A stretch of DNA of 64,000 nucleotides from an uncultured Chloroflexia bacterium (GTDB lineage Bacteria; Chloroflexota; Limnocylindria; Limnocylindrales; CSP1-4), in assembly GCA_963800275.1 (NCBI GenBank), contig CAWDAI010000006.1, positions 207,130-271,129 on the forward strand. Reading direction: 5' to 3'. Positions 1,670 through 53,701 of this stretch are shown here, piece by piece. The number at the start of each line of letters is the position of its first letter. The first letter of the stretch is position 1. The notes under the pieces are model-generated. The model saw only the letters and a list, made by a program, of their open reading frames with translations, did not search any database and was not told where the DNA came from. The translations under genes were made by a program, and so were the position numbers.

Positions 1670-2193
1670 TCGGACGACTGATGCGGCGGCTGACCGGCCG
1701 TCATCGCTCCCGCGGACAGGCTCTCGTCGAGTTCACGCTCGTGGCGCCGATGCTGTTCCTGCTCATCCTCGGGACCATCGAGGCTGGGCGGTTCATCTTC
1801 TTCTACGAGGTCATGAACAATGCCACCCGCGAGGGTGCACGCTACGCCATCGTCCACGGCGCCAATTCGACGTGCCCCAGCGGTCCGCCGCCGCCTGGCG
1901 AGGTCAACAATTGCGACCTGCCTGGCAAGAACGTGAAGACGGCGGTGGCCGATGCCGCTCTCGAGCTGGCCGGGGTCGGCGACCTCATCGTCTTCGACCC
2001 GGTCTGGACCAACCGAAGCACGCCTGCCAACCCCAGCCCGGGAGACGCCAGCTCGGGCACCAACGCTCGCGGCGAGTACGTGACCGTCTTCCTCGACTTC
2101 ACCTACCAACCGCTCGTGCGGGAGGTCGTGGACATCCCCTTCCTGCCGGACATCAACATCAGCGCGGAGTCGACCCTTGTCATCAACTACTGA
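1666..2193 (+). CDS. TadE-like minor pilin (module A, gene 2)
   Basis: ATG at 1666 overlaps the upstream stop (ATGA). [49 protein letters not shown] matches the TadE-like motif. Confidence 0.65.
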
Positions 2194-3580
2194 GCGACAG
2201 CGCGGGCAGGTGCTCGCCATCTTCGCCCTGAGCCTGACCGTCGTGCTCGGGGCCGGAGCGCTTGCCTTCGACGGCGGCCTGATGATCCTCGAGCGTCGCG
2301 ATGAGCAGAACGCGGCAGATGCGGCGGCCATGGCCGGTGCGCGCTACGTCACCACCGACCAAACAAAGGCGCGCGACGTGGCTGCGAGCGTGGCCAGTGA
2401 CAATGGCTTCACCGCCGGCGACGGCCAGGAGATCGTCACGGTCAACATCCCGCCGGCTACGGGCAAGTTCGCGACCTGGCCCAATGCCATCCAGGTCGAC
2501 ATCCGGAACACACGTCCCTCTATCCTCGGTGCGGTCATGGGCTTCCTCAACTGGCCCGTCAGCGCCACGGCCACGGCTGCCTCGTTGGACAACGTGGGCG
2601 GTCCGTTCTCAATGCTCGCGCTCGAACCGCACGAGTGCAAGGGCATCCTTGTCGCAGGCTCAGGGGGCATCGTGGCCAACGGCAACATCCAGGTGAATTC
2701 TGACTGTCCGGACTCAGCTCTCATGCGGCAAGCCGGCGGTACGATCACGGTCACAGCGGCTGGCGCAGCGTGCAATGTGAACGGTGGCATCAAGGATGAC
2801 GGAGGCCAAGGCGACAACCTCCACTGCCTCACGGTGACTGGGGCGCCGGTAATTCCGGATCCGCTGGAGGCCCTGCCGGACGTGACGATGCCGTCGTTCC
2901 CGCAAGCGCCCGCGAAGATCGGCCACAACAAGCAAACCCCAACCGGTTGCCCGGGTAGCAACAAACCCGCCACGCTCGACGCGCCCGCCGAGTGCAAGTT
3001 CGGGGCCCAGCTCAAGGACACCACGTGGCGCCTCTATCCGGGTGTGTATCCCGGTGGCATCACCATACTGGGTGGGAACTTCTACCTGGAGCCAGGCATC
3101 TACTGGATCGGCGGAGGCGGCCTATCAATTGGCGGCAACGGCTCGTTCATCGAGTCGGTAGAGGCGGGTACAACCACGATCGGCGGTGGCGTCCTCTTCT
3201 ACAACACAGCAATCTCAGGTTCACCGCTCGGGGTCATCGACCTCAATGGCGCCTCGGCCAACATGCACCTGATGCCGCTGAACATGCCCGCAGGTACGTG
3301 GCAGTCCACTTGGAATGGGTTGATCATCTATCAGGACCGTTCCTACACCAGCGGCGCGAACGATCTCACCGTGAATGGGAACGCCTCCGTGGGCATGGAC
3401 GTCCGAGGCACCATCTACCTGCCTGACGGCGAAGTCGTCATCAATGGCAACAACGGCGACCTGGTGATGGACCAGATCATCGCGCGAACGTTCAAGGTCA
3501 ACGGAGACAGCGGCGACATCCTGGCCCTGAAGGACACGGACAACATCTACAAGTTCAACGCCGCCGGCCTCGTGGAGTAG
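2177..3580 (+). CDS. TadG-like (Tad/PF13400-type N-terminus) pseudopilin with large Gly/Asn-rich beta-rich C-terminal region (module A, gene 3)
   Basis: N-terminus [53 protein letters not shown] matches the TadG-like N-terminal pattern. 467 aa. The C-terminus is rich in G/N/T repeats typical of TadG. Confidence 0.65.
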   Translation: MSSTTERQRGQVLAIFALSLTVVLGAGALAFDGGLMILERRDEQNAADAAAMAGARYVTTDQTKARDVAASVASDNGFTAGDGQEIVTVNIPPATGKFATWPNAIQVDIRNTRPSILGAVMGFLNWPVSATATAASLDNVGGPFSMLALEPHECKGILVAGSGGIVANGNIQVNSDCPDSALMRQAGGTITVTAAGAACNVNGGIKDDGGQGDNLHCLTVTGAPVIPDPLEALPDVTMPSFPQAPAKIGHNKQTPTGCPGSNKPATLDAPAECKFGAQLKDTTWRLYPGVYPGGITILGGNFYLEPGIYWIGGGGLSIGGNGSFIESVEAGTTTIGGGVLFYNTAISGSPLGVIDLNGASANMHLMPLNMPAGTWQSTWNGLIIYQDRSYTSGANDLTVNGNASVGMDVRGTIYLPDGEVVINGNNGDLVMDQIIARTFKVNGDSGDILALKDTDNIYKFNAAGLVE

Positions 3581-3618
3581 CCGCCGGCCCGGCCCGGGCC
3601 TCAAGATCACGAGTAGGA

Positions 3619-3660
3619 CCCCTCCCTCGGACAGCATGTCCGGCGGAGGGGTTCGTTCTT
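3619..3660 (+). terminator. Rho-independent-like terminator after pilin module A
   Basis: CCCCTCC...GGAGGGG 7-bp GC stem (3619-3651) followed by TTCGTTCTT. Sits 40 nt after the TadG-like stop. Confidence 0.45.
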
Positions 3661-3858
3661 GTGCGCTCAGGTGTTAAGCAGGGTGCGCCAGCCGTTGACT
3701 TCCATCGCCACTAATCGCGCTTCGGTGTGGTCGAAAAGTACCGGGGAGCGTACCATCGTAATGTGGTTCGGGGGACCACTGGTCACAGTCGCCGGTCCTC
3801 CTCCTGGACCCGAGTCCTGAGCGCAGGCCCACGTGGGCCCGACTAGGGGGAATGGCCA

Positions 3859-4845
3859 GTGAAGCGCATCGCGGGTTCCCTGCGATCCCGCCATCGAGAC
3901 GTTTCGACTCCAGGGACTGGCCTCACGCGTTCGCGCGGCCAGTCTCTGGTGGAGTTCACCCTGGTCATTCCGGTGCTTCTCCTCATCGTTTTGGGTGCGC
4001 TTGACTTCGGCCGAGCGTTCATGGGTTGGATCGTCCTCAACAATGCTGCACGGGTCGGTGCGAACTACGCATCTCTGTATGCGCCCGCGTGGAATGGTGG
4101 TGTCAACGCGAGCACCCGCCAAGACGCGTACGAGCAACTCGTGGCAGGCGCCAGGAGAGAGGCGGCAGGTGTCTTCGCAGGCTGTGATGACGAGGTTGTG
4201 CCGAGCCCTGCTTTCCCGAGTGGGTATGAGATCGGTGACTATGCCGTCGTCGAGTTGGATTGCGGATTCCAGCCGATCACACCTCTGATCGGGGAGATCC
4301 TCTCTTCAGGTGGTGGCACCTTGCCAGTCGGAGCGAAGGCCGTGTTTCCGATTCGCACGGGCAAGATCGACAGCCCTCCCGAGGATCCGGCGGGGCTCTG
4401 CAGGTCCACTTTCACGTATCAGGCGGAAGCTGAGGACCCGCACGCGGTTCAGTTCACGAATACGACGGCTGGCGGGAGCGGGATATTCGCTTGGGACTTT
4501 GGGGATGCGGAGTACGAGGTCGTCGAGAACCCGCTGCACATCTATGAAGAGGGTCGGGCTTACAGCGTGACATTTCAGGCCGGCGGCTGTACTTCGATCA
4601 CCTACCCGGTGCTGGTGCTCGATGAGGCACCGGAGGATCCACCCCCACCTGGCGACACCCGCTGCCAGGTTCCGGTATTCGCCGACACATTGAATACTGG
4701 CGCCATCGCACTCTGGTCAGATGCTGGGTTCACCGGAACCATCACATACATCCCTGCGGTCGGCGAATGGACGGTTGCATCGCAGACGTTGGTAGGCAAC
4801 TCCCTACAGGCCTGTGATGAGGACATCACCTTGAGGAAGAAATAG
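3859..4845 (+). CDS. TadE-like minor pilin fused to a PKD domain and a Cys-bracketed C-terminal module (module B, gene 1)
   Basis: GTG start, N-terminal RGQSLVEFTLVIPVLLLIVLGALDFGRAF. PKD signature at aa ~181-254 (FAWDFGDAEYEVVENPLHIYEEGRAYSVTFQAGG). C-terminal CQVP...WSDAGFTG...C module. Confidence 0.65.
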   Translation: MKRIAGSLRSRHRDVSTPGTGLTRSRGQSLVEFTLVIPVLLLIVLGALDFGRAFMGWIVLNNAARVGANYASLYAPAWNGGVNASTRQDAYEQLVAGARREAAGVFAGCDDEVVPSPAFPSGYEIGDYAVVELDCGFQPITPLIGEILSSGGGTLPVGAKAVFPIRTGKIDSPPEDPAGLCRSTFTYQAEAEDPHAVQFTNTTAGGSGIFAWDFGDAEYEVVENPLHIYEEGRAYSVTFQAGGCTSITYPVLVLDEAPEDPPPPGDTRCQVPVFADTLNTGAIALWSDAGFTGTITYIPAVGEWTVASQTLVGNSLQACDEDITLRKK

Positions 4846-4853
4846 GACTGGCC

Positions 4854-5321
4854 ATGGACGACCAGTGCCAAGCCAAGACCGTCCCCGCGGCGAGGGAACA
4901 TCAGCTCGGTGGGGGGTTGGTGGAGTTCGCCCTGGTCCTGCCATTGCTCGTGCTTGTGATGCTTGGGTTGTTCGACGGTGGCCGGGCGATCATCTTCTAC
5001 TCAGAGTTGTCGAACGCCTCACGCGCCGGCGCTCGCGTGGCAATGGTCAACCAGTCGAACGATGCGAGTTGCTCGGGTAGCGAGCCCACGTTCAAGTGCG
5101 CCGCTGCTGCGCAGACGAGTGGTACTGGACTGACCGCCTCTGATATCGGCGACCTCACGATCGAGGGGGACGACTGCGCCCTCATCAACGCATGCAGTGT
5201 GACAGTGAAGGTGGAGTACACCTACGAGCCGATCACACCGGTCATCGGCGACCTGATCGGTCCGATCGATCTGGTGGCTGAGTCCACGATGCCCATCGAA
5301 CGCCAGCACACGGGCCCATAG
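4854..5321 (+). CDS. TadE-like minor pilin (module B, gene 2)
   Basis: [47 protein letters not shown]. 155 aa. Confidence 0.65.
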   Translation: MDDQCQAKTVPAAREHQLGGGLVEFALVLPLLVLVMLGLFDGGRAIIFYSELSNASRAGARVAMVNQSNDASCSGSEPTFKCAAAAQTSGTGLTASDIGDLTIEGDDCALINACSVTVKVEYTYEPITPVIGDLIGPIDLVAESTMPIERQHTGP

Positions 5322-5324
5322 GAG

Positions 5325-6533
5325 ATGCACATGGACACGAGGCACTTCGGCTCGCGCGAAGGAGGGCAAGTCTTGCCACTCTTCGCGCTTGGGCTTGTCA
5401 CCCTCATCGCTGCCATCGCGCTCGTGCTGGACGGCGGCTTCGCTCTCGCGAAGCATCGCGAAAGCCAGAATGCGAGCGACGCGGCGGCCGAGGCTGGCGC
5501 AGTCGTCTTGGCGGAGCACCGATCTGGTGCCGACCGAACGGATTCCGAAGTGTGGGATGCCGTACAGGGTGTCCTCACCGCGATGGGCATGGATGTTGTT
5601 GGTTCCAGCGCCGAGTACACCAGGATCGATGGGACCGGACTTGGGCTGATGGTCGGCGAGAGCGGCGGTTCTGCGTCCGCCCCACCACCAGCGGCGTGGG
5701 GAGTCACCGTCAATGGTTCGTTGCCTGTCGACACCTTTTTCGCACGCGTCATCGATATCGACGAGTTCGACGCAGCGACGACGGCAACTGCCATAACCGG
5801 GTATGGCAAGCCCGCGGGAACTACGCTGCTTCCTGTCACGCCACCGATCACGATGGTCACGTGTGATGGCACCAACCGGCCGCTGAGCACGGCAACGCGA
5901 TGGGGCACAGAACAGATCTACAAAGTGCCCCTGTGCTCCAACGGTGCCGGCAATGTCGGTTGGTTGGATTGGTCAGACGAATACGACGAGAATGAGGGGG
6001 GCGGCAAGGTCGAGATCGAGGACCAGATCAGGAGTCCGTACATTCCCCCTCCAGGGATCTTGATCCCGGCGTGGCACCAAGTAGCCGAGACTGGCAGCCC
6101 GAACAAGATCGGGATCGAGGACGCCCTGCGAGAGCACGACGGTGAGATTGTCCTTCTTCCTATCTTCGATGCATGGTGCACAGGAGACGTGGAGCCGAAC
6201 AGCGACGGGGTTCTGGACTGCCCTGAGGGCGATGTGAGCCCAGTCGAGAGCCCCGATCCCAGTAACCCAGGTGGCGGCGCCAAGATGTGGTATCACCTCC
6301 AGGAGATCGCCGCGTTCGAGCTTTGCTCGCCGGCGATTGACGGCTGCACCGAGCATGGTGCGTACATCAACTCAGCGACCGAGGCCACCCAGATCTGCGA
6401 ATCGGGTAACGGATCCACGCGTTGTCTCGTTGGCAAGTTCGTCAACTTCATCCCAGGCCCGGGTTACGTCACCGGCGAGCTCGATACCACGGCTGGGCCT
6501 TCGAACTTCCTCGTCATCCAACTGATCAGGTAG
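5325..6533 (+). CDS. TadG-like pseudopilin (module B, gene 3)
   Basis: EGGQVLPLFALGLVTLIAAIALVLDGGFALAKHRESQNASDAAAEAGAVVLA, a TadG-type N-terminus. 402 aa. The 3-nt gap to the previous gene suggests co-transcription. Confidence 0.65.
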   Translation: MHMDTRHFGSREGGQVLPLFALGLVTLIAAIALVLDGGFALAKHRESQNASDAAAEAGAVVLAEHRSGADRTDSEVWDAVQGVLTAMGMDVVGSSAEYTRIDGTGLGLMVGESGGSASAPPPAAWGVTVNGSLPVDTFFARVIDIDEFDAATTATAITGYGKPAGTTLLPVTPPITMVTCDGTNRPLSTATRWGTEQIYKVPLCSNGAGNVGWLDWSDEYDENEGGGKVEIEDQIRSPYIPPPGILIPAWHQVAETGSPNKIGIEDALREHDGEIVLLPIFDAWCTGDVEPNSDGVLDCPEGDVSPVESPDPSNPGGGAKMWYHLQEIAAFELCSPAIDGCTEHGAYINSATEATQICESGNGSTRCLVGKFVNFIPGPGYVTGELDTTAGPSNFLVIQLIR

Positions 6534-6535
6534 GT

Positions 6536-6561
6536 CCCGACGCTCCAGCAGCGGAGTCGGG
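6536..6561 (+). terminator. Hairpin after pilin module B (possible terminator, no U-tract)
   Basis: CCCGAC-g-CTCC agcagc GGAG-t-CGGG, immediately after the stop at 6533. Confidence 0.3.
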
Positions 6562-6877
6562 CCAGGTTGGGCCGGGAGGAGAACAACTGCGGTGCGGCAC
6601 GCCCTTGTGGTCCCATCGCAGACGTCGGGACAGCCATCCGAGCCATACGTTCACGAATGCTAGTCGAGTTTGACGGCTGCATCAGGCATAGCCTCCAGAT
6701 TTCCCGGTTCTGGTCCATGGTGGACCGCTGGACACCAGTGCGGTGATGTGCAGTCACGCCGTTGATTCCTGTCAGCAGAAAGGCCCAGCGCGCCTATGCA
6801 CTTTGGTCAGGGGACGGTACGATTGAGCCCAGCCGAGGTACCAAGGGTCATCCCTCTGCTGTTCGTCCGAGCGCCAG

Positions 6878-7789
6878 ATGCCTGCCCACTCTCCGGAGGC
6901 GAATGTGGAACCAAACAAATTCAGGGCCGGACCAGAGACCTCCCGGTCGTCATCGTCGCGGTCGGCTGGTCAGGCGCTCGTCGAGTTCGCGCTCGTGCTG
7001 CCCGTCATGCTTCTCCTACTGCTGATGGCAGTCGATTTCGGTCGTTTGTTCACGACCTACATCGCTGTCAACAACGCCGCGCGGGAGGGTGCGTTCTACG
7101 CTGCCGAGCACGCCAAGGACACCCCGTTCGACCAGTCGACGTTCAACGCCGCGGCGCGAGCGGCCGCAGAGAGGGAGGTCAACGTCCAGAGCCAGGGCGG
7201 AGAGGGCACGCTGTCGGTCAGCCTGCCGGTCTGCTCGGTCGCCGGGGTACCATCCAGCACAGTGTCGTGCGAGACGGCGGCTGCCAGTGGTGGTGTAACG
7301 GGCTACCAGGCCACTGTGACGGTCTCTCGGCCCTTCTCGCTGATCACCCCCATCGTGGGCGACCTCTTCGGCGGTTCGCTTGACCTGACCGCGACATCAA
7401 GCGCGCCGGTTCTGAACGCGCCGAGCGTGATCGTGCTCCCCGGGGCTTCGCCGACTCCTACTCCGTCGCCAACCCCCAGCCCGTCGCCTACCCCGAGCCC
7501 TACGCCCGACCCAGGAGCGTCGCCCAGTCCGTCCCCCGACCCGAACGCCAGCCCGACGCCCACCCCCTCGCCTACGCCTGAACCCACCTGCACAGTGCCC
7601 GACGTGACCTCGAGCGGCAACATCCACTGGTACTACAACACTGATCCCAACGCCCTCGATGCCTGGCAGGTGGCCAACTTCACCGGAGCGCTCGTGGACG
7701 ACACCTCCAACCAGAAGATCAAGAGTCAGACGCGCGCCGCCGGATCGGTGGTGGTGTGTTCCAGCAGCATGACTGTGAGCGACAAGTGA
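6878..7789 (+). CDS. TadE-like minor pilin with Pro/Thr/Ser-rich linker and Cys-bracketed C-terminal module (module C, gene 1)
   Basis: [30 protein letters not shown] motif. Alternative GTG start at ~6906 follows a GGAGG RBS. Linker [21 protein letters not shown]...SPTPEP (aa 189-236) precedes CTVP...WQVANFTG...C. Confidence 0.6.
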
Positions 7790-8352
7790 ACCGACATTCC
7801 ACCCGCACCCGCCAGGATGGCCAGACGCTCGTGGAGTTCGCCTTGGTCCTGCCGTTCTTCATGCTCATCCTCTTCGGGGTCTTCGATGCCGGACGGCTCG
7901 TGTTCACCAACTCGACCCTCTCCCAGGCGGCACGTGAGGGTGCGCGTCTGGCGGCCGTGGAGGCTGGCAACGTCGGTCTCAGCGACAGCGATTGCGTCGA
8001 CACCGCCGCCGATGTCGGGACCTCGGGTGGTATCGGTGCCAAGGTGTGCCCACCTTCCTTGACCTCGCTCAAGACGGACGTGGAGTCCGCCGTGGATCGG
8101 ATGACCGCGGCGGTCGGTCCACTAGCGGCCGTCTATTTCTCCTGCGACCCAGACGGCACGGAGCCGAGTGGCGCCTGGACCGAAACAAGCGAGGGCAATG
8201 GCTGTGACGACGGAAGTGGCAACAGCCTCGGTGCCACCGGCGAATTGGTCTCGGTGCGGATCGAGCACGCCTATCAACCCATCACGCCGGTCATCGGCGA
8301 GATCTTCGGCACGATCACGCTCAGCGGGTCGGCCAGCATGACCATCAACTAG
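7786..8352 (+). CDS. TadE-like minor pilin (module C, gene 2)
   Basis: GTG at 7786 overlaps the upstream stop (GTGA). N-terminus [40 protein letters not shown]. The ORF could extend to an ATG at 7756. Confidence 0.6.
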
Positions 8353-8361
8353 GAGGTCATC

Positions 8362-9426
8362 GTGACGGACCATTCACGGCAGAAGGGCCAAGCTCTTGCG
8401 CTCCTCGCCATCGCCTTGGCTGCAATCGTGGCTGGCGTCGCTGTCGTCGTCGACGGCGGATATGCGTATGCACAGCGTCGCGCCTCGCAGAATGCGGCCG
8501 ACTTCGCGGCGATGGCGGGCACTCGCCTCATCGGCCAGGCGCGGACGAACAGTTCCGTTAGTGGCGGACAGGTCCGGAGCGCGGTCGATACGTCGCTCAC
8601 CTCGAACGGTGCCTCGCTCGTCTCTGGCACATACATCGATGAGGACGGCCAGGCCATCGGTGCCCTCTCAACAGGCGGGTCGATCCCGCCGAACGCTTTT
8701 GGACTCGTCGTGCAGGCCAAGACAGACTGGCAGCCGTTCTTGCTCGGAGTCATCGGGATCACTGACTGGGCGGCCGGAGCCAAAGCCACCGCCAAGACGC
8801 CGGGCGAGGCGCTCGGCGGTGGGGTCATGCCGGTGGGGATCCAGGACTCTCAATTCGATGGCCTCGTGCCCTGTCCCATCACCGATCTCGGCACCTGCAT
8901 CGATCAGAACCTCACGTCGGGGGCACTCAACATCCCCGGGGGGTTCGGCTGGCTCAAGTTCGGCCTCCAAGGTACCGGGGGCAAGTGCAGCTGGACGAGC
9001 AGTCTGGGCATGATCGCCGACGGCGGCTGCCAGACCAGCAAGACCTACCTTGATTCGCAGATCGGCCCGCCGGCCGACTCGCACGGCTGCTGCACTGCGG
9101 TGGACCAGAGCGGCAGCGTGGACCTCATCGGCAGCCTCACCGGCAACGAGTGGGGAGACCTCAGCTTCTACATCGATAACCGTATCCCCGTTTGGGTGCC
9201 GATCTGGGACTCGCCGCAGGGAACTGGCGCGAACTCCTCCTACCACATCGTCGGATTCGGCGCGATCGTCTTCACCGGTGAGAACGAGCACGCCAAGTGG
9301 CTGGAAGGTGCGGCTATCGCAGATGCCTGCAAACCCGGTACGGCCATAACTGGCACGTCGTATTGCACGGAACCCGGTGGGCCCTTCGTCTTGGGCGCGA
9401 CCGGGGAAGTGTTCCTGGTGAACTGA
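8362..9426 (+). CDS. TadG-like pseudopilin (module C, gene 3)
   Basis: AGGAGG RBS, then GTG. N-terminus QKGQALALLAIALAAIVAGVAVVVDGGYAYAQRRASQNAADFAAMAGTRL. 354 aa. Confidence 0.65.
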   Translation: MTDHSRQKGQALALLAIALAAIVAGVAVVVDGGYAYAQRRASQNAADFAAMAGTRLIGQARTNSSVSGGQVRSAVDTSLTSNGASLVSGTYIDEDGQAIGALSTGGSIPPNAFGLVVQAKTDWQPFLLGVIGITDWAAGAKATAKTPGEALGGGVMPVGIQDSQFDGLVPCPITDLGTCIDQNLTSGALNIPGGFGWLKFGLQGTGGKCSWTSSLGMIADGGCQTSKTYLDSQIGPPADSHGCCTAVDQSGSVDLIGSLTGNEWGDLSFYIDNRIPVWVPIWDSPQGTGANSSYHIVGFGAIVFTGENEHAKWLEGAAIADACKPGTAITGTSYCTEPGGPFVLGATGEVFLVN

Positions 9427-45771: not shown

Positions 45772-45847
45772 TGGTGGAGCGACGGGGACTTGAACCCCGG
45801 ACCTTCTGCATGCCATGCAGATGCTCTCCCAGCTGAGCTATCGCCCC
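45772..45847 (-). tRNA. tRNA-Ala (anticodon GGC), CCA encoded
   Basis: Reverse complement GGGGCGATAGCTCAGCTGGGAGAGCATCTGCATGGCATGCAGAAGGTCCGGGGTTCAAGTCCCCGTCGCTCCACCA. G3:U70 Ala identity pair. Anticodon loop AT-GGC-AT. T-loop GGTTCAAGTCC. Confidence 0.85.
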
Positions 45848-46869: not shown

Positions 46870-47361
46870 CTAGCAGCGCGAGAGGACGACGAAGGCTGCG
46901 AGCTCGTCGGCCACGCGCTGGGCATCACTCTCCACGTGGGGCGCAGCCTTGCGAGGCTTGGGATTGGTGCGGAAGTCCTCGACCGCCAGGTCCAGGTCGC
47001 CGAGGCGGTACTTGAGCCGCGTCGATGATCGCTCCAGCTCGTCCGCGCGGTCACCGAGGTCGGCATCGTCCAGCTCGTTGTAGGCGGCCACCAGCTTCTC
47101 GAGCTCGATGTCGAGCGCGACCCGGTTGGGCAGCTTGAGCTCGACCGCTCGCAGCGACGCCAGCCGGGTCTCCATCTCCGTCAGGAGCTGACACAGGCCG
47201 GTATCGGGATCAGGGCTCGGCAGCAGCGAAGGGCTCGGGCTCGGGCTCGGTGCGACGACGGACGGGCCGGGAGAAGGACTGCCCGGAGCGCTCCCGCCGC
47301 CACCGCAGGCGCCGACGACGAGTGCGGTCGCAGCGAGGCAGGCAAGGAGACGGTTGGACAC
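46870..47361 (-). CDS. Hypothetical lipoprotein
   Basis: MSNRLLACLAATALVVGACGGGG (lipobox LVVGAC). PSPSPSPS linker. Coiled-coil-like remainder. Confidence 0.5.
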   Translation of the reverse strand: MSNRLLACLAATALVVGACGGGGSAPGSPSPGPSVVAPSPSPSPSLLPSPDPDTGLCQLLTEMETRLASLRAVELKLPNRVALDIELEKLVAAYNELDDADLGDRADELERSSTRLKYRLGDLDLAVEDFRTNPKPRKAAPHVESDAQRVADELAAFVVLSRC

Positions 47362-47444
47362 CCGGACAGTCTCGCAGACGATCGTGGACTCGGCAGTGAT
47401 CGGTCCCCCAGGTGGGCCGTGCGGTTCTGGGTGAAGATGTGCCC

Positions 47445-49076
47445 ATGTGGTCGAAGCGCCCGCCGCGGCTCTCCTCGCCCGCCGCCGGCCTGGTCCTGGT
47501 CCTGCTGCTGGTCACGGCCCTGCTCCCGGCGCCGCTGGCGACACTGGGAGCCGACCCCAGCGTCGCGCCCGAGCCTGCTCCCTCCGCTGCGGCCGCGCTC
47601 TCGACCCCAGGCGAGCGCCAGACGGACGTCAGCGGCACCTGGCGCCGCGTGGCCAACGCGCCATTCGCGTCTGAGCGTGCGTCCGGAGGCTGGACCGGGA
47701 CCGAGGCCATCGTCGTGGCCCAGGGACGGGAGCGCCGGGCGGCGGCCTACGACCCCGTCAGCGATGTGTGGAGGAGGATCGCCCGACCTCCGCGGCCGAT
47801 GGCGAGCGGCACCCGCGCCGAATGGACCGGCAGCGAGCTGCTCTTCGTCGAGGAGGACGCGGGCTCGGGAGACGGCCTCCTGGCCTACGCTCCCGCTTCC
47901 GACAGCTGGCGCGCGACGGCGCCGGCACCGGTCACCGATATCTCGTCGGCAGCCATGGTGGGGGCCACGCTCGTCACGCTCGCGTCCGACGGGTCGGCAG
48001 CGAGCTACGACCCCGCCGTGGACGCCTGGACGGCGCTGCCGCCGCTCGAGCAAGCCGTCCTCCTGGCGGCGGGGGACGAAGTCCTGGCGCTGACCGGGGA
48101 CGTGACGCTTGCCGTCCGCCGTCTCGACCTGCTGGCGAACAGCTGGAGCGGTCCGTCGGCAGGACCGCTCGCCGAGTCCAGCGCCCCGCCGGTCTGGGTC
48201 GGCGACGCGCTCGTGTTCCTGTCCCGGCCCCTCGACCCGGACGCGGATGGCACGGGCCTGGCGCGCGACGGGCGGTACGACCCCGCGACCGACACGTGGT
48301 CGCTCACCGAGAACCCCTGCGGGCTCGACACGTCCGAGGCGGTCCGGACCGGCGCACTCATCCTGTCGATGGGGCAGCGGCTGGCGTTCGACCCGGCCTC
48401 GGAGACCTGCCAGGACCTGCCGGCGCCGCCGTGGCCGTCACGCAAGCGATCGCTGCGGATCTGGACCGGCGAGGAAGCCATCGAGTGGTCCGGCCGCAGC
48501 GGCAAGCAGGGCCAAGCGCGCCGTGATGGGATCGCCTATCGGCCGGTTCCGGCGGAGGGTGCGCGAGGGGCGATCGTGGACCAGGCGGCGCGGCCGGTGC
48601 GGGTGCGGATCCCGTCGCTGGACATCGATCTGCCGGTGGTCTCGCTCGAGCGACGAGTGAAGGGTGCGACGCCCGGCTACCCCGCCTGCGACGTGGCCTT
48701 CTTCTGGCCGGTGTTCGACCTGCCCGGCGCGCCCGGCACCACCTGGATCCTGGCCCACGCCCAGGAGGGCATGTTCCTGCCGCTTCTCGACACGGCCCGA
48801 CGACTCGGCCCTGACAGCCTGCTCGGCCGCAAGGTGGAGCTGCAGCTGCGCGACGGCCGCCTTTTCACCTACCGCACCTATCGCGTGAAGCGGCGCGCGG
48901 ACAACTACGACCTGGGCCTTGCCACCCAGGGCCGCAAGGACTGGGAGCAGCGACTCGTCCTGCAGACCAGCACCGGCATCGGCAGCGCGCCCAAGCTGCA
49001 GGTCGCAGCGCGCCTGCTGGACGTGGGCACCACCGACGAGCCACGACCCAGGCCGCGTCCGCGCGCCTGCGGCTGA
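47445..49076 (+). CDS. Secreted Kelch-like repeat protein with C-terminal sortase-fold (class E/F-like) domain carrying Cys->Ser at the TLxTC position
   Basis: Signal peptide. Five YDP..D.W-type repeats. C-terminal RVRIPSLDIDLPVV...GTTWILAHAQEG...GRLFTYRTYRV...LVLQTSTG...AARLL parallels the sortase pattern (L.IP.IGV.APV...AGH...TLxTC...R). Confidence 0.5.
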   Translation: MWSKRPPRLSSPAAGLVLVLLLVTALLPAPLATLGADPSVAPEPAPSAAAALSTPGERQTDVSGTWRRVANAPFASERASGGWTGTEAIVVAQGRERRAAAYDPVSDVWRRIARPPRPMASGTRAEWTGSELLFVEEDAGSGDGLLAYAPASDSWRATAPAPVTDISSAAMVGATLVTLASDGSAASYDPAVDAWTALPPLEQAVLLAAGDEVLALTGDVTLAVRRLDLLANSWSGPSAGPLAESSAPPVWVGDALVFLSRPLDPDADGTGLARDGRYDPATDTWSLTENPCGLDTSEAVRTGALILSMGQRLAFDPASETCQDLPAPPWPSRKRSLRIWTGEEAIEWSGRSGKQGQARRDGIAYRPVPAEGARGAIVDQAARPVRVRIPSLDIDLPVVSLERRVKGATPGYPACDVAFFWPVFDLPGAPGTTWILAHAQEGMFLPLLDTARRLGPDSLLGRKVELQLRDGRLFTYRTYRVKRRADNYDLGLATQGRKDWEQRLVLQTSTGIGSAPKLQVAARLLDVGTTDEPRPRPRPRACG

Positions 49077-49136: not shown

Positions 49137-50052
49137 ATGCTACTGATCACCATCGTGCTCATCGTCGTCGGCATCGCGCTGATCGTGGCCGGCATCGCCA
49201 TCGTGGCCCAGGCCCTCAGCACCCGCAGTGGGGGCCTGACCGTGGGCAAGGCGGCGCTCGCGGTGGCCTCGGTCGCCCTTGGGGTCGTCGTCTCGGTGGG
49301 CGCCCTCGGCCTGAACGAGATCGGACCCGGGCCAGGTCGGCGTCAAGATCCGTTTCGGCCAACCGCAGGAAGGCACGCATGCCTCGGGACTCAGGCTGGT
49401 TCCCCTGGTCGAGACCGCCATGGTCTACGATGGGCGCGTGCAGGCCTACAACTTCGAGGGCATCGCGGGGGCCACCAAGGACCTCCAGCCGGTGAAGCTG
49501 TCCGGGCTCATCAACTACCACATCGACGGCGCGCAAGGCGGACAAGGTCCTGCAGGACATCGGCGGCCCCGACCGATTACGCGGCGAAGGTCTTCCTGCG
49601 GCCGGCCAACACCGCGCTCAAGGAGATCACCCGCGATACAACGCGGCCGAGGTCATCGGCAAGCGCGACGAGATCGGGCAGCTGACGCTGAGCGCGCTGC
49701 AGGAACGCATGGACCCGTTCAACATCATCGTGGATCGCGTGTCGGTGGAGAACGTCATCCTCAACGAGGCCTTCCTGAGTCGGTGGAGGCCAAGCAGATC
49801 GCCCAGCAGGACCAGGAGCGCGCGACCTTCGAGAAGCAGCGCCAGGTGACGCTGGCACAGGCGGACGCCGAGGCCACCATCGAGCGGGCCCGGGGCCAGG
49901 CGCAAGCGAATGACCTCATCAACAACAGCCTGACCGAGAACCTGCTGCGCTGGCAGACGATCCAGCAGCTGGCCGACAACATCCGGGTCATGCTGCTGCC
50001 CTCGGACCAGAACTTCATCCTCGACACGAGCGGCATGCAGCTGGACGAGTGA
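49137..50052 (+). pseudogene. SPFH/band-7 (prohibitin/HflC-like) gene disrupted by multiple frameshifts
   Basis: N-terminal TM helix (frame 0). GQVGVKIRFGQPQEGTHASGLRLVPLVETAMVYDGRVQAYNFEGIAGATKD (frame 1). Further SPFH-like segments (TDYAAKVFLRPANTALKEITRD, YNAAEVIGKRDEIGQLTLSALQERMDPFNIIVDRVSVENV, EAKQIAQQDQERATFEKQRQ...) alternate between frames. At least four shifts in 0.9 kb. Confidence 0.6.
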
Positions 50053-50083
50053 CTGCCGGCTGACAGCGTGGCTGCCAACGCGG

Positions 50084-50503: not shown

Positions 50504-50714
50504 CCGCCAGTGGGACCATCCGAGCGATCGCCTTTCCGCTGCTTCCTCGTCGATGACGGCCTGCGCATCGGGGCCGGCGTGCGCTAGACCCGGCCGTTTC
50601 GGACCGGGGACCCGCGGAGGCACCTGGGGGTCCCGACCGGCAGGGCCACTCGGCCTTGACCACGCCTGGTGGGACCGGGACCATGGGCTCGAGCGCACGA
50701 ACGGGAGGGACCTG

Positions 50715-51836
50715 ATGCCAGCATCCACGAACCCACACCGGGTCAGCACACAGCGGTGGCTCAGCGCCGCCCTGGCCACGCTGCTGGCCCTGGCCACGCT
50801 GCTGACGCTCGAGGCCGCCCCGGTCGCAGCCGCCGGCAAGACCTGCCGGGTGCGCGACACCAGCAGCGGTGCGGTCTACGGCCGGCTCCAGCAGGCCGTC
50901 TACCGTGCCCGGCCCGGCAGCACGCTGGTGCTGAAGGGCACCTGCGCCGGCCAGACCATCATCGGCAAGCGGCTCACGATCGTGGGCGTCAGGACCGCGC
51001 GGCTCGGGCGCCCGACGCTCGACGGCCAGCGCTGGAAGTCCCCGGGCAGGCCCGTCCTGACCGTCAAGGCCAGGGCCTCGGTCGGCCTGCGCGACCTCGA
51101 GATCGTGCGCGGCGAACGAGCCATCGTGAATCGTGGTCGCCTGTGGCTGCGGGCTGTCACCATCCGCCACAACACCGGGCTCGCGGTGACCAACGTCGGG
51201 ACCCTGGTCACGAACGGGCACACCCGCATCGTCGACAACGACACCGCTCGCACGCTCGTTAACCGGGGCACGATGCGGCTGCGCGGTAGCACCGCCATCC
51301 ACGACAACCAGCTCTTCCACGGCGTCTCGGCCACGGTCATCAACCGCGGCGCGCTCGTCTTCGACGACCGGGCCAGCCTCTCGCGACAGGGACCGGTCGA
51401 CAACGCCGGCAGGCTGGTCATGCGGGGGACGAGCGCCATCCACCACACCTGGACGACCTCGTGTGTGAACGTCACCTGCGAGGCCTCCGGCGATCCCGGG
51501 GCCGGGGTCCGCAATAGCGGCACGCTCCGGCTCGAGGAGCGGTCCAGCATCCACCACGCGGTGGTACGCGACGACACCCCCCAAGGCAGTTACAGCGACC
51601 CGCCCGGTAGCTACCCACCGGCGCGGGGTGGCGGCGTCTACAACGCGGGCACCCTGGTCATGCAGGACGACAGCAGCATCCACGACAACGCCGCCAAGAC
51701 CCTGTTCGGCGGCACCGTGGCCGGTCAGGGTGGCGGTGTCTACGACGCGCCCGGCGGTGTCCTCGTGGGCGTGCGCTGCACCGGTCCCGATGCCAACGTC
51801 TTCGACAACGCACCGGACGACTGCTCCGCGCCGTAG
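50715..51836 (+). CDS. Secreted right-handed parallel beta-helix repeat protein
   Basis: Signal peptide after internal ATG (MPASTNPHRVSTQRWLSAALATLLALATLLTLEAAPVAAA). Repeated N.GTL...T.I.DN / IHDN / IHHA beta-helix-like repeats. Confidence 0.5.
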   Translation: MPASTNPHRVSTQRWLSAALATLLALATLLTLEAAPVAAAGKTCRVRDTSSGAVYGRLQQAVYRARPGSTLVLKGTCAGQTIIGKRLTIVGVRTARLGRPTLDGQRWKSPGRPVLTVKARASVGLRDLEIVRGERAIVNRGRLWLRAVTIRHNTGLAVTNVGTLVTNGHTRIVDNDTARTLVNRGTMRLRGSTAIHDNQLFHGVSATVINRGALVFDDRASLSRQGPVDNAGRLVMRGTSAIHHTWTTSCVNVTCEASGDPGAGVRNSGTLRLEERSSIHHAVVRDDTPQGSYSDPPGSYPPARGGGVYNAGTLVMQDDSSIHDNAAKTLFGGTVAGQGGGVYDAPGGVLVGVRCTGPDANVFDNAPDDCSAP

Positions 51837-51936: not shown

Positions 51937-52012
51937 TGGTGGAGATGAGGGGACTCGAACCCCTGGCCTCTGCGATGCGAACGCAGCGCTCTCCCAGCTG
52001 AGCTACATCCCC
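51937..52012 (-). tRNA. tRNA-Ala (anticodon CGC), CCA encoded
   Basis: Reverse complement GGGGATGTAGCTCAGCTGGGAGAGCGCTGCGTTCGCATCGCAGAGGCCAGGGGTTCGAGTCCCCTCATCTCCACCA. G3:U70. Anticodon loop TT-CGC-AT. Confidence 0.85.
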
Positions 52013-52120: not shown

Positions 52121-52924
52121 ATGGCCTACCAGCACACCAAAGGGGTCCGTGTCGTGTTCTGGCCAGTCTGGTTCGTCTATAAGCTGTCGAGGCGCCTGTG
52201 GCTCCTGCTCGCCGCAGCCAGCGCCGGGTTCGCGGCCGGTCTGCTCCTGCAGGCCCGGGCTGAGCAGCGAAGCTGGGCCGTGGTGCGGGCCGATGCCGAG
52301 CGGCAGCTGGTGGGAGATGACCTCATTCCCGCAGCCGACACGGTCGACACCCGCAGCCTGCGGATCGAAGCCCCGCCGGAGCGGGTCTGGCCATGGATCG
52401 TGCAGATGGGCTGGGGACGTGGCGGCTGGTATTCGTACGACAAGCTGGACATGGACCGGCCCAGTGCCCAGACCATCCTTGAGGAGTTCCAGGACCTGTC
52501 CCCGGGCCAGACCGTGCCGATGTACCCCGAGGGTGGGTTCGAGGCACGTGCCGTGGATCCGCAAAAGGCGCTCGTCCTCTACCTCGACACCGAGCTGGTG
52601 CGGGCCCAGGACGCGGCCGCGCAGGACGACCGCACGGCCGCTGGAGCAGCGACGGCGGGTCCGCACATGGGCCTCGAGGCCGCGGGCGCGATGAGCGAGC
52701 TGACGATGCCCGACTTCCGGGTCAGCTGGGCCTTCGTGCTGGAGCCTGCTGCCGGCGGTGGTACACGACTCATCGAGCGCCTGCGCCTGTGGACCGCGCC
52801 GGGCGGCGTGGCGCAGCGTCTGGGCCTGCCGTTCGTGGGACTCGGTGTCTTCCTCATGACTCGCAAGCACATGCTCGGCCTCAAGGAACGAGCCGAGCGC
52901 CACGCACCGACCGGGGAGGTCTAG
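52121..52924 (+). CDS. SRPBCC-superfamily protein (polyketide-cyclase/START-like), paralog 1
   Basis: PERVWPWIVQMGWGRGGWYSYDKLD motif. N-terminal TM segment. Confidence 0.55.
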   Translation: MAYQHTKGVRVVFWPVWFVYKLSRRLWLLLAAASAGFAAGLLLQARAEQRSWAVVRADAERQLVGDDLIPAADTVDTRSLRIEAPPERVWPWIVQMGWGRGGWYSYDKLDMDRPSAQTILEEFQDLSPGQTVPMYPEGGFEARAVDPQKALVLYLDTELVRAQDAAAQDDRTAAGAATAGPHMGLEAAGAMSELTMPDFRVSWAFVLEPAAGGGTRLIERLRLWTAPGGVAQRLGLPFVGLGVFLMTRKHMLGLKERAERHAPTGEV

Positions 52925-52927
52925 CCC

Positions 52928-53701
52928 ATGTTCCGGCTGCTCAGATCCAACTTCAAGACCATCGTGCTCCTGCAGCTGCTGGCGCTGGCCTTCAGCGCGG
53001 GCATGGGCGCGGCCTACGTCCTTCAGCTCCGCCGGCACTACGGCAGTTGGGGCAAGGCCCACGGCGAGGACGCGCGAGCCATGGCCGGTGACGACCTGGT
53101 GGCCGCTCCCGATCTGGTCGAGACCCGCTCCATCGATATCGATGCCGCGCCCGACGAGGTCTGGCCCTGGCTGGCACAGCTGGGCTATGGGCGGGGCGGC
53201 TGGTACAGCTTCCCGGTGCTCGACCGCCCGTGGGCGCCCAGCGGCGGCCCCACTCGTCGCAGCGCCGACGAGATCCTACCCCAGTTCGGCACTCTCGCCG
53301 AAGGCGACATCGTGCCCACCCAGACGGGCGCCGGCTTCATCGCCCGCGCGGTGCAGCCGGGGCAGGCTCTGCTGCTGTACCTCGACGACGAGATCACCCG
53401 AGAGCAGTTGCGCGAGGTCGCGGAGGCCGCTGCCGACATGGACAGCGACGAGGCTTTCGAAGGTGCGGGCGCAGACCTGGAGCTGACCGACCAGGTCCCG
53501 CCCTACCAGGTCACCTTCGCCTACGAGCTGGAGTCGCTGCCAGGTGGGCGAACCCGGCTGACCGAGCGCCTGCGAGTGCACCTGGAGGCGAGCGAACAGC
53601 AGTGGCGCCTGCGGCCTGCCTTGGTGCTGGCCCTGTTCGCCTTCATGCGCTGTCAGCTGCTGGGCATCAAGCGTCGCGCCGAGGGCTTGGAGAGGGACTG
53701 A
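52928..53701 (+). CDS. SRPBCC-superfamily protein, paralog 2
   Basis: PDEVWPWLAQLGYGRGGWYSFPVLD. Same architecture as paralog 1, 4 nt downstream of it. Confidence 0.55.
   Translation: MFRLLRSNFKTIVLLQLLALAFSAGMGAAYVLQLRRHYGSWGKAHGEDARAMAGDDLVAAPDLVETRSIDIDAAPDEVWPWLAQLGYGRGGWYSFPVLDRPWAPSGGPTRRSADEILPQFGTLAEGDIVPTQTGAGFIARAVQPGQALLLYLDDEITREQLREVAEAAADMDSDEAFEGAGADLELTDQVPPYQVTFAYELESLPGGRTRLTERLRVHLEASEQQWRLRPALVLALFAFMRCQLLGIKRRAEGLERD

Follow-up and report, generated by a model that had tools for sequence, protein, structure and literature searches.

The gene at positions 47445..49076 (forward strand) of the stretch analysed here (a 64-kb window, i.e. the whole 64,000 nucleotides taken from contig CAWDAI010000006.1 of an uncultured Chloroflexia bacterium) encodes a secreted two-domain protein in which a Kelch-type β-propeller is followed by a divergent sortase-superfamily domain. 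Sequence comparisons place this domain in a large, essentially Chloroflexota-specific clade in which His438, Ser509 and Lys517 (numbering of the window protein) appear to replace the His-Cys-Arg triad of sortases. The sortases described to date are all stated to be cysteine transpeptidases with that triad (PMC8225981). A full-text literature search turned up no sortase that is of the Ser type or lacks the Cys, nor any study of a sortase from Chloroflexota, and the clade is new in that sense: a natural Ser/Lys sortase-fold family without earlier description in the searched literature. We consider the chances about even that, as the conservation pattern described below suggests, the Kelch-fused domain is a working Ser-His-Lys variant of a sortase in which the propeller has replaced the membrane anchor. 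The gene and the parts of its product are as follows (aa, amino acids; pLDDT, predicted local distance difference test).

47445..49076, forward strand: gene for the Kelch/sortase-fold protein, 543 aa plus stop, from the list of open reading frames (ORFs); ATG start, with an alternative GTG start at 47412
47445..47552, forward strand: signal peptide, aa 1-36 (MWSKRPPRLSSPAAGLVLVLLLVTALLPAPLATLGA), read from the sequence, with its cleavage inferred
47553-47612, forward strand: Pro/Ala/Ser-rich linker, aa 37-56, read from the sequence
47613..48545, forward strand: Kelch-type β-propeller, aa 57-367, from Pfam, PDB sequence matches and an AlphaFold2 (AF2) model compared by Foldseek
48546..48593, forward strand: inter-domain linker, aa 368-383, modelled with low confidence (pLDDT <50 for aa 370-376 in the full-length model)
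48594..49031, forward strand: sortase-fold β-barrel, aa 384-529 (β1 to β8), from the domain model, PDB matches and Pfam PF04203
49032..49073, forward strand: C-terminal tail, aa 530-543 (TDEPRPRPRPRACG), ending ...PRPRPRACG, with a conserved P-x-P-x-P-R-x-C motif

The C-terminal domain including the tail corresponds to aa 384-543. Public contigs of a Chloroflexota metagenome-assembled genome (MAG) encode an identical protein (P0001), and some 23 full-length orthologues with 45-90% identity all show the same Kelch plus sortase-fold architecture, so this layout is kept far beyond what chance would allow. In one locus (L008:4913-6522) the Kelch-fused orthologue is read as two ORFs, of 215 aa and 318 aa, which part at a stretch rich in PKPRPP; either a frameshift or an insertion would account for this. 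The signal peptides of the orthologues have short h-regions that end in AxA and are followed by Q (e.g. ...APVSAQEE); none of the orthologues has a lipobox, and neither they nor the window protein contain a transmembrane segment beyond the cleavable-type signal peptide.

The assignment to the sortase superfamily is based on the fold and on Pfam. The Pfam Sortase model (PF04203; cutoff 26.6 bits) gave 25.2 bits with the whole protein, just below the cutoff, and 28.8 bits with the domain alone, and it matched 120 of 126 diverse members of the family. A model of the C-terminal domain built on an alignment of 126 sequences reached a pLDDT of 94.5 and a predicted template modelling score (pTM) of 0.90. 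When this model was compared with the PDB by Foldseek, the best 50 matches were all sortases, of classes E, A and C, with E-values down to 3.5e-9, template modelling scores of 0.57-0.65 and a probability of 1.00. The N-terminal half matched Pfam Kelch_1 with 23.4 bits (cutoff 20.1), and the fusion of a Kelch-like propeller to a sortase-fold domain, which had been proposed in a preliminary description made from the sequence alone, was thereby borne out. The eight-stranded barrel is shared with class E and A sortases (SrtE of Thermobifida fusca, 9iok/9j0t; SrtA of Streptococcus pyogenes and S. agalactiae, 3fn5, 7s56 and 3rcc; Foldseek E-values from 3.5e-9 to 1e-7). The β1-β2 strand pair of these enzymes (I.IP..xI.LPV) aligns with the window domain, as does the β6-β8 region, with a Thr-nucleophile pair closing β7 and a basic residue opening β8; the β7-β8 loop has seven residues, the same length as in streptococcal SrtA. 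The window domain differs from class E and A sortases in that it has Ser for the nucleophilic Cys and Lys for the Arg, and in that it adds an invariant Cys pair and the P-x-P-x-P-R-x-C tail; the protein as a whole lacks their membrane anchor and has an N-terminal Kelch propeller instead.

The best-scoring curated NCBIfam model for the domain was that of class F sortases (NF033748), with which the window protein scored 20.5 bits and short members of the family 22-28 bits, the cutoff being 166 bits; the protein is thus not a member of class F, although NCBI labels a few of the short members 'class F sortase' or 'sortase'. Class F sortases, such as SrtF of Cutibacterium acnes, have a catalytic Cys and a catalytic Arg, both of which the window domain lacks. 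Since the protein departs from described sortases at two of the three catalytic residues and falls short of the class F model, it was placed within the superfamily but outside every described class. That it is not a housekeeping sortase, as had been suggested beforehand, also agrees with its cleavable-type signal peptide, its lack of a membrane anchor and its fusion to a propeller.

The residues that occupy the catalytic positions, together with the conserved Cys pair, are located as follows.

48756..48758, forward strand: His438 (ILAHAQEGMF), putative general base, from its conservation; two residues after β4
48963..48971, forward strand: Gln507-Thr508-Ser509 (LVLQTS), end of β7, from SrtA alignments and family conservation
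48993..48995, forward strand: Lys517 (PKL), first residue of β8, at the position of the sortase Arg, from the profile alignment of pKLqV with ERIIV
48687..48689, forward strand: Cys415 (YPACDVA), just before β3, from its invariance and from β-bridges
49068-49070, forward strand: Cys542, in the P-x-P-x-P-R-x-C motif, from its invariance

Two alignments define the nucleophile position. The family profile aligned to S. agalactiae SrtA with E = 4.9e-5, pairing LvLQTSEGP...pKLqV with LTLVTCTDP...ERIIV, and hmmalign of S. aureus SrtA (a sequence identical to that of PDB 1ija) to the family hidden Markov model (HMM), which covered β6-β7 only, paired I182-T183-C184 with Q507-T508-S509. From these, Ser509 stands in the place of the Cys, Thr508 in that of the conserved Thr, and Lys517 in that of the Arg. 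When hhalign was used to compare the family with the single S. aureus SrtA sequence, the probability was <1%, and Ser509 was still paired with Cys184. In the domain model the strands β4, β7 and β8 comprise residues 431-436, 502-509 and 517-529, which puts Ser509 and Lys517 at the canonical sortase positions. Searching the domain for the hallmarks of sortases thus found a His just after β4, but no catalytic Cys (TLxTC) and no catalytic Arg, Lys517 being there instead. Several proposals of the preliminary description can be judged from this. Its Ser/Thr at the Cys position is Ser509, and no Cys aligns there; the His that it had singled out in TTWILAHAQEG is His438, which agrees in conservation and in its place behind β4, while residue-level alignment to SrtA did not place it. 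The Arg of AARLL, which it had taken for the sortase Arg, was in contrast not upheld, since the equivalent residue is Lys517, and R523 is variable (Arg in 140 of 263 family members). The description had named two grounds on which it should be abandoned, a fold other than that of sortases and a Cys at the nucleophile position; neither was found.

The family is large. An exhaustive search yielded 238 representatives at the 50%-identity level and a word-indexed search 245 clusters at 90% identity, while a scan of species-representative genomes yielded at least 557 loci, nearly all of them in Chloroflexota/Limnocylindria MAGs and often with several paralogues per genome. Four architectures occur. 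In some members the domain follows an N-terminal anchor, either a transmembrane segment or a lipoprotein one, and in others a C-terminal transmembrane helix with a basic tail is added to this arrangement; a third type contains the domain twice in tandem, and the fourth is the Kelch fusion. In the tandem proteins (L058:4912-6477, L061:5032-6501 and L069:5065-6504) the His, the QTS, the Lys and the Cys pair are present in both copies of the Ser-type domain. Conservation was counted over 289 aligned domains, down to ∼35% identity. His438 was kept in 280 of 285 sequences, Gln507 in 266 of 267, Thr508 in all 267 and Ser509 in 261 of 267, while the column of Lys517 contained Lys in 239 and Arg in 15 of about 264. 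The neighbouring residue 510 (E/T), considered together with residue 440 (R/Q) as a possible sign of contact between the Ser and His loops, covaries with it among 90 representatives (P = 5e-4); residue 440 is not among the top mutual-information partners of 510, and the covariation may be a subclade signature. A QTRDG sequence seemingly present at the nucleophile position of the substrate-adjacent enzymes described below proved to be a pattern artefact arising from ELQTRDGRL in β5; all of these enzymes have LILQTS[TE]GP.

His438 and the residue at position 509 tend to be lost together: His and Ser (or Cys) were both kept in 259 members, neither was kept in four, and only one was lost in two (Fisher P = 1.2e-7, uncorrected for kinship). 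Where the site has decayed, His, Ser and Lys are replaced by Gln, Gly and Val (P0180 and P0199), by Asn, Gly and Asn (P0201), or by Asn, Ala and a gap (P0215); these sequences are 36-55% identical to one another, which implies at least two separate loss events. In another lineage (P0171 with P0332-P0334; four sequences on several contigs), position 509 is occupied by Cys (LVLQTCET) and the His and the Lys are kept, which marks position 509 as that of the nucleophile. Both the decayed and the Cys509 variants recur on independent contigs and are therefore not read errors.

These data bear on the possibility that the sortase-like domain is a pseudo-enzyme, i.e. a module that binds peptides or sorting signals, with the propeller as a second binding surface, so that the protein would act as an extracellular adaptor or wall scaffold. 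Two of the three triad residues are replaced (Cys by Ser, Arg by Lys) relative to a triad stated to be common to all described sortases (PMC8225981), the few lineages with clearly decayed sites show that function is indeed lost at times within the family, and the Kelch-fused form has neither a membrane anchor nor a neighbouring substrate. However, dead enzymes usually drift at their catalytic positions, whereas here the His, the Gln-Thr-Ser and the Lys are conserved over at least 260 diverse sequences; the loss of His and Ser is coupled, and a variant with Cys at position 509 exists. The conservation of His, Ser and Lys, which ranks with the highest in the family, their joint loss and the Cys509 variant point to a working unit rather than to a relic. 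We regard a pseudo-enzyme as rather unlikely.

Paralogues of the window protein provide candidates for the substrates of such a working site. Those with a C-terminal transmembrane helix, 50-61% identical to the window domain and with an identical catalytic signature, adjoin genes for large surface proteins built from DUF11/DUF7507, DUF7619, CARDB and SpaA-fold domains, the C-termini of which consist of a PxTD motif, a spacer, a transmembrane helix and RRxR (e.g. KPPTDMLLVTDTLGG...WVLLSALLILSTGFVIRRER); KPPTDMLLVTDTLGG and NFENSPATDTEV are candidate substrate peptides of the PxTD type. In a second group, short enzymes lie beside smaller proteins ending in ...HIYNFE.SPATDT, a transmembrane segment and RRR. 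A motif screen revealed 12 proteins with PxTD, a transmembrane helix and RR in 12 loci, and in 11 of the 11 loci with a called family member they were encoded by the immediately adjacent gene; about five further proteins with PxTD tails were spotted by eye. The P, T and RR positions were ≥90% conserved among 15 such proteins, and one locus reads LPATDA. PxTD thus resembles an LPXTG signal with Asp in place of the Gly after PxT, and on these sequences it is the likely signal of the family, in the place of the LPXTG or LAXTG of class E and A sortases. None of the curated sorting-signal models covers the PxTD motif; one PxTD tail passes the LPXTG-anchor model TIGR01167, on account of its transmembrane and basic parts. 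The search for LPXTG/LAXTG substrates that the preliminary description had recommended gave nothing in the 64-kb window, which contains no sorting-signal protein and no second member of the family; the candidates lie beside paralogues in other loci.

A six-frame search of 86 loci detected no canonical Cys sortase. That the paralogues are found next to putative substrates, with no other sortase nearby, further argues against a pseudo-enzyme. Of the two earlier alternatives, an inactive binding domain and a Ser-based transpeptidase, the active enzyme is favoured, without the matter being settled, by the conservation within the family, the coupled loss, the Cys509 variant and the substrate-like genes beside the paralogues.

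The type of reaction is a separate question. With an N-terminal anchor, a C-terminal transmembrane helix and neighbouring genes for SpaA-fold/DUF11 surface proteins, the paralogues resemble class C (pilus-assembly) sortases; this likeness holds for them and not for the window protein, and the nucleophile position is Ser. The same active-site evidence would equally fit a Ser hydrolase that resolves the acyl-enzyme with water; such an enzyme, a secreted sheddase or maturase, would release or trim PxTD surface proteins. A soluble secreted protein fits a diffusible protease better than it fits an anchoring enzyme coupled to lipid II, but the membrane-anchored paralogues, lying beside pilin-like proteins with SpaA domains, resemble anchoring or polymerising sortases, and none of the evidence gathered here distinguishes hydrolysis from transfer. 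A hydrolase seems to us improbable.

The mature window protein contains exactly four Cys residues, all of them invariant (C292, C322, Cys415 and Cys542). Two of these belong to the sortase-like domain: Cys415 was found in 285 of 285 sequences of the family and Cys542 in 255 of 255, and they always occur as a pair. Because both are kept even more strictly than Ser509, it can be asked whether the thiol nucleophile has merely been relocated, with Cys415 or Cys542 being catalytic and Ser509 a bystander. Several observations speak against this. The full-length and the domain models both contain β-bridges at 414-415 and 540-541, which suggests that the tail docks beside Cys415. The lineages in which the triad has decayed (P0180, P0199, P0201 and P0215) keep the Cys pair in spite of having lost His, Ser and Lys, which fits a structural disulfide and not catalysis together with His438. 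From the topology of sortases, the start of β3 and the end of β8 should lie at the end of the barrel opposite the active site, and the pair with them. Finally, the propeller carries an invariant Cys pair of its own (C292/C322, in the Kelch-fused orthologues), so that disulfides would be the norm in this protein. A relocated thiol is accordingly very improbable indeed. Cys415 and Cys542 probably form a disulfide that staples the barrel and ties down the tail, and the window protein may be read as having two structural disulfides and no free thiol. About 150 members of the family end 0-7 residues after Cys542. The tail itself (TTDEP; GPAD in relatives) was considered as a tethered, PxTD-like pseudo-substrate; this seems unlikely, as the topology of sortases should lead the tail around the end of the barrel that faces away from the active site.

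As regards the N-terminal half, its PDB sequence matches were designed Kelch propellers. The full-length AF2 model (pLDDT 81) had Keap1, KLHDC3 and SAKe as its best PDB matches in Foldseek (E ∼1e-11). Instead of the five YDP..D.W repeats initially reported, six such junctions were counted, at aa 102, 148, 188, 227, 278 and 315, and in addition a GIAYRP strand that closes the propeller. The number of strands assigned by DSSP to the model is compatible with seven four-stranded blades, and the blade count is predicted to be six or seven. In its fold and in the signature of its YDP..W repeats the window propeller agrees with Kelch propellers such as Keap1, KLHDC3 and the designed SAKe; it differs from them in being bacterial and secreted, in its internal invariant Cys pair and in its fusion to a sortase-like domain. 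The two halves differ greatly in constraint among the orthologues: the sortase-like half has a mean identity of 73.5% and 41% invariant columns, whereas the much more variable propeller has 49% and 16%. This was counted in favour of a working Ser-His-Lys domain.

If the domain is a working sortase variant, Ser509 would be the nucleophile that forms the acyl-enzyme, His438 would activate it and Lys517 would do what the Arg does in sortases. Proteins would be cleaved, and probably transferred, at the LPXTG-like PxTD signal, and in this paralogue the propeller, in the place of a membrane anchor, would position the catalytic domain at a target protein or at a component of the wall. We infer an active Ser enzyme from the conserved site, and the substrate of the window protein from the candidate substrates of its paralogues. 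Cell-wall acyl transfer is carried out with a Ser nucleophile by penicillin-binding proteins (PBPs) and with a Cys nucleophile by L,D-transpeptidases. The comparison with D,D-transpeptidases (Ser/Lys PBPs) and L,D-transpeptidases (Cys/His) is an analogy only; the folds are unrelated and homology is not implied.

A number of points weigh against this proposal. Simple replacement of the catalytic Cys of sortases is generally reported to be inactivating, so that catalysis by Ser would need a re-tuned active site. Lys517 is less strictly kept than the His and the Ser, several members having Val there in the alignment, and neither hhalign nor hmmalign to S. aureus SrtA yielded a residue-level placement of His438. 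The Kelch-fused subfamily has neither an adjacent substrate nor a membrane anchor, and its gene lies in a housekeeping synteny, preceded by genes for LeuRS, a YgjP-like protein, a small lipoprotein and sometimes NAPRTase. As many of the loci share synteny, the adjacency of enzyme and substrate in the paralogues amounts to about two independent pairings rather than twelve. Finally, the search for a Cys sortase covered 86 loci, and one could be encoded elsewhere in these genomes.

No conserved operon partner was found in the orthologous loci of the Kelch-fused gene, and two neighbours were considered as such and set aside. One is a small lipoprotein encoded upstream, with SRC at its end; it is present in all six Kelch-fused loci examined, but so are LeuRS and YgjP, which indicates lineage synteny only. 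In the window this lipoprotein (46870-47361, reverse strand) has a lipobox (...VVGAC), no Pfam match, a C-terminus reading ...VLSRC and one other conserved Cys. The downstream Band_7 gene is not conserved in the orthologous loci. This Band_7/SPFH gene (49137-50054, forward strand) is broken in the window by several 1-bp indels (e.g. near 49325, 49391-49393, 49535, 49571, 49630 and 49777), either through assembly noise or because it is a pseudogene; on the otherwise matching ENA contig L001 it is intact and encodes 305 aa.

Some other features of the window were also recorded. At least six TadE/TadG-like genes (of the Flp/Tad pilus pseudopilin type), one of them with a weak PKD match, occupy 2177-9426 on the forward strand. 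There are two tRNA-Ala genes on the reverse strand, at 45772-45847 (anticodon GGC) and 51937-52012 (anticodon CGC); the former lies inside an over-long N-terminal extension of the LeuRS ORF (945 aa, versus 864 aa as called). A 427-aa ORF at 50553-51836 (forward strand), without a Pfam match, has an internal signal-like hydrophobic stretch and Asn/Gly/Thr-rich repeats, and its product is possibly a secreted protein of the β-helix type. Two tandem paralogous membrane proteins ending in ...LGIKRRAEG are encoded at 52121-52924 and 52928-53701 (forward strand); one has a weak Polyketide_cyc2 match, and the pair is found in synteny at the orthologous loci L008, L009 and L012.

Were the domain inactive, it would be a clean case of a conserved pseudo-sortase, and the automatic label 'class F sortase' would be misleading. 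Taken as a whole, the comparisons suggest, with a likelihood that we put a little short of even, that this Chloroflexota clade comprises the first natural serine sortases, with a Ser-His-Lys site on a disulfide-stapled barrel that processes PxTD proteins, and that the window gene encodes a soluble, secreted version in which the propeller directs a transpeptidase or ligase to an extracellular target. If so, the sortase scaffold would support serine chemistry, in parallel to the Ser and Cys transpeptidases of peptidoglycan, and protein engineering might gain ligases that are insensitive to oxidation and recognise a new motif, PxTD. It would also offer a handle on how surface proteins are displayed in the uncultured Limnocylindria.

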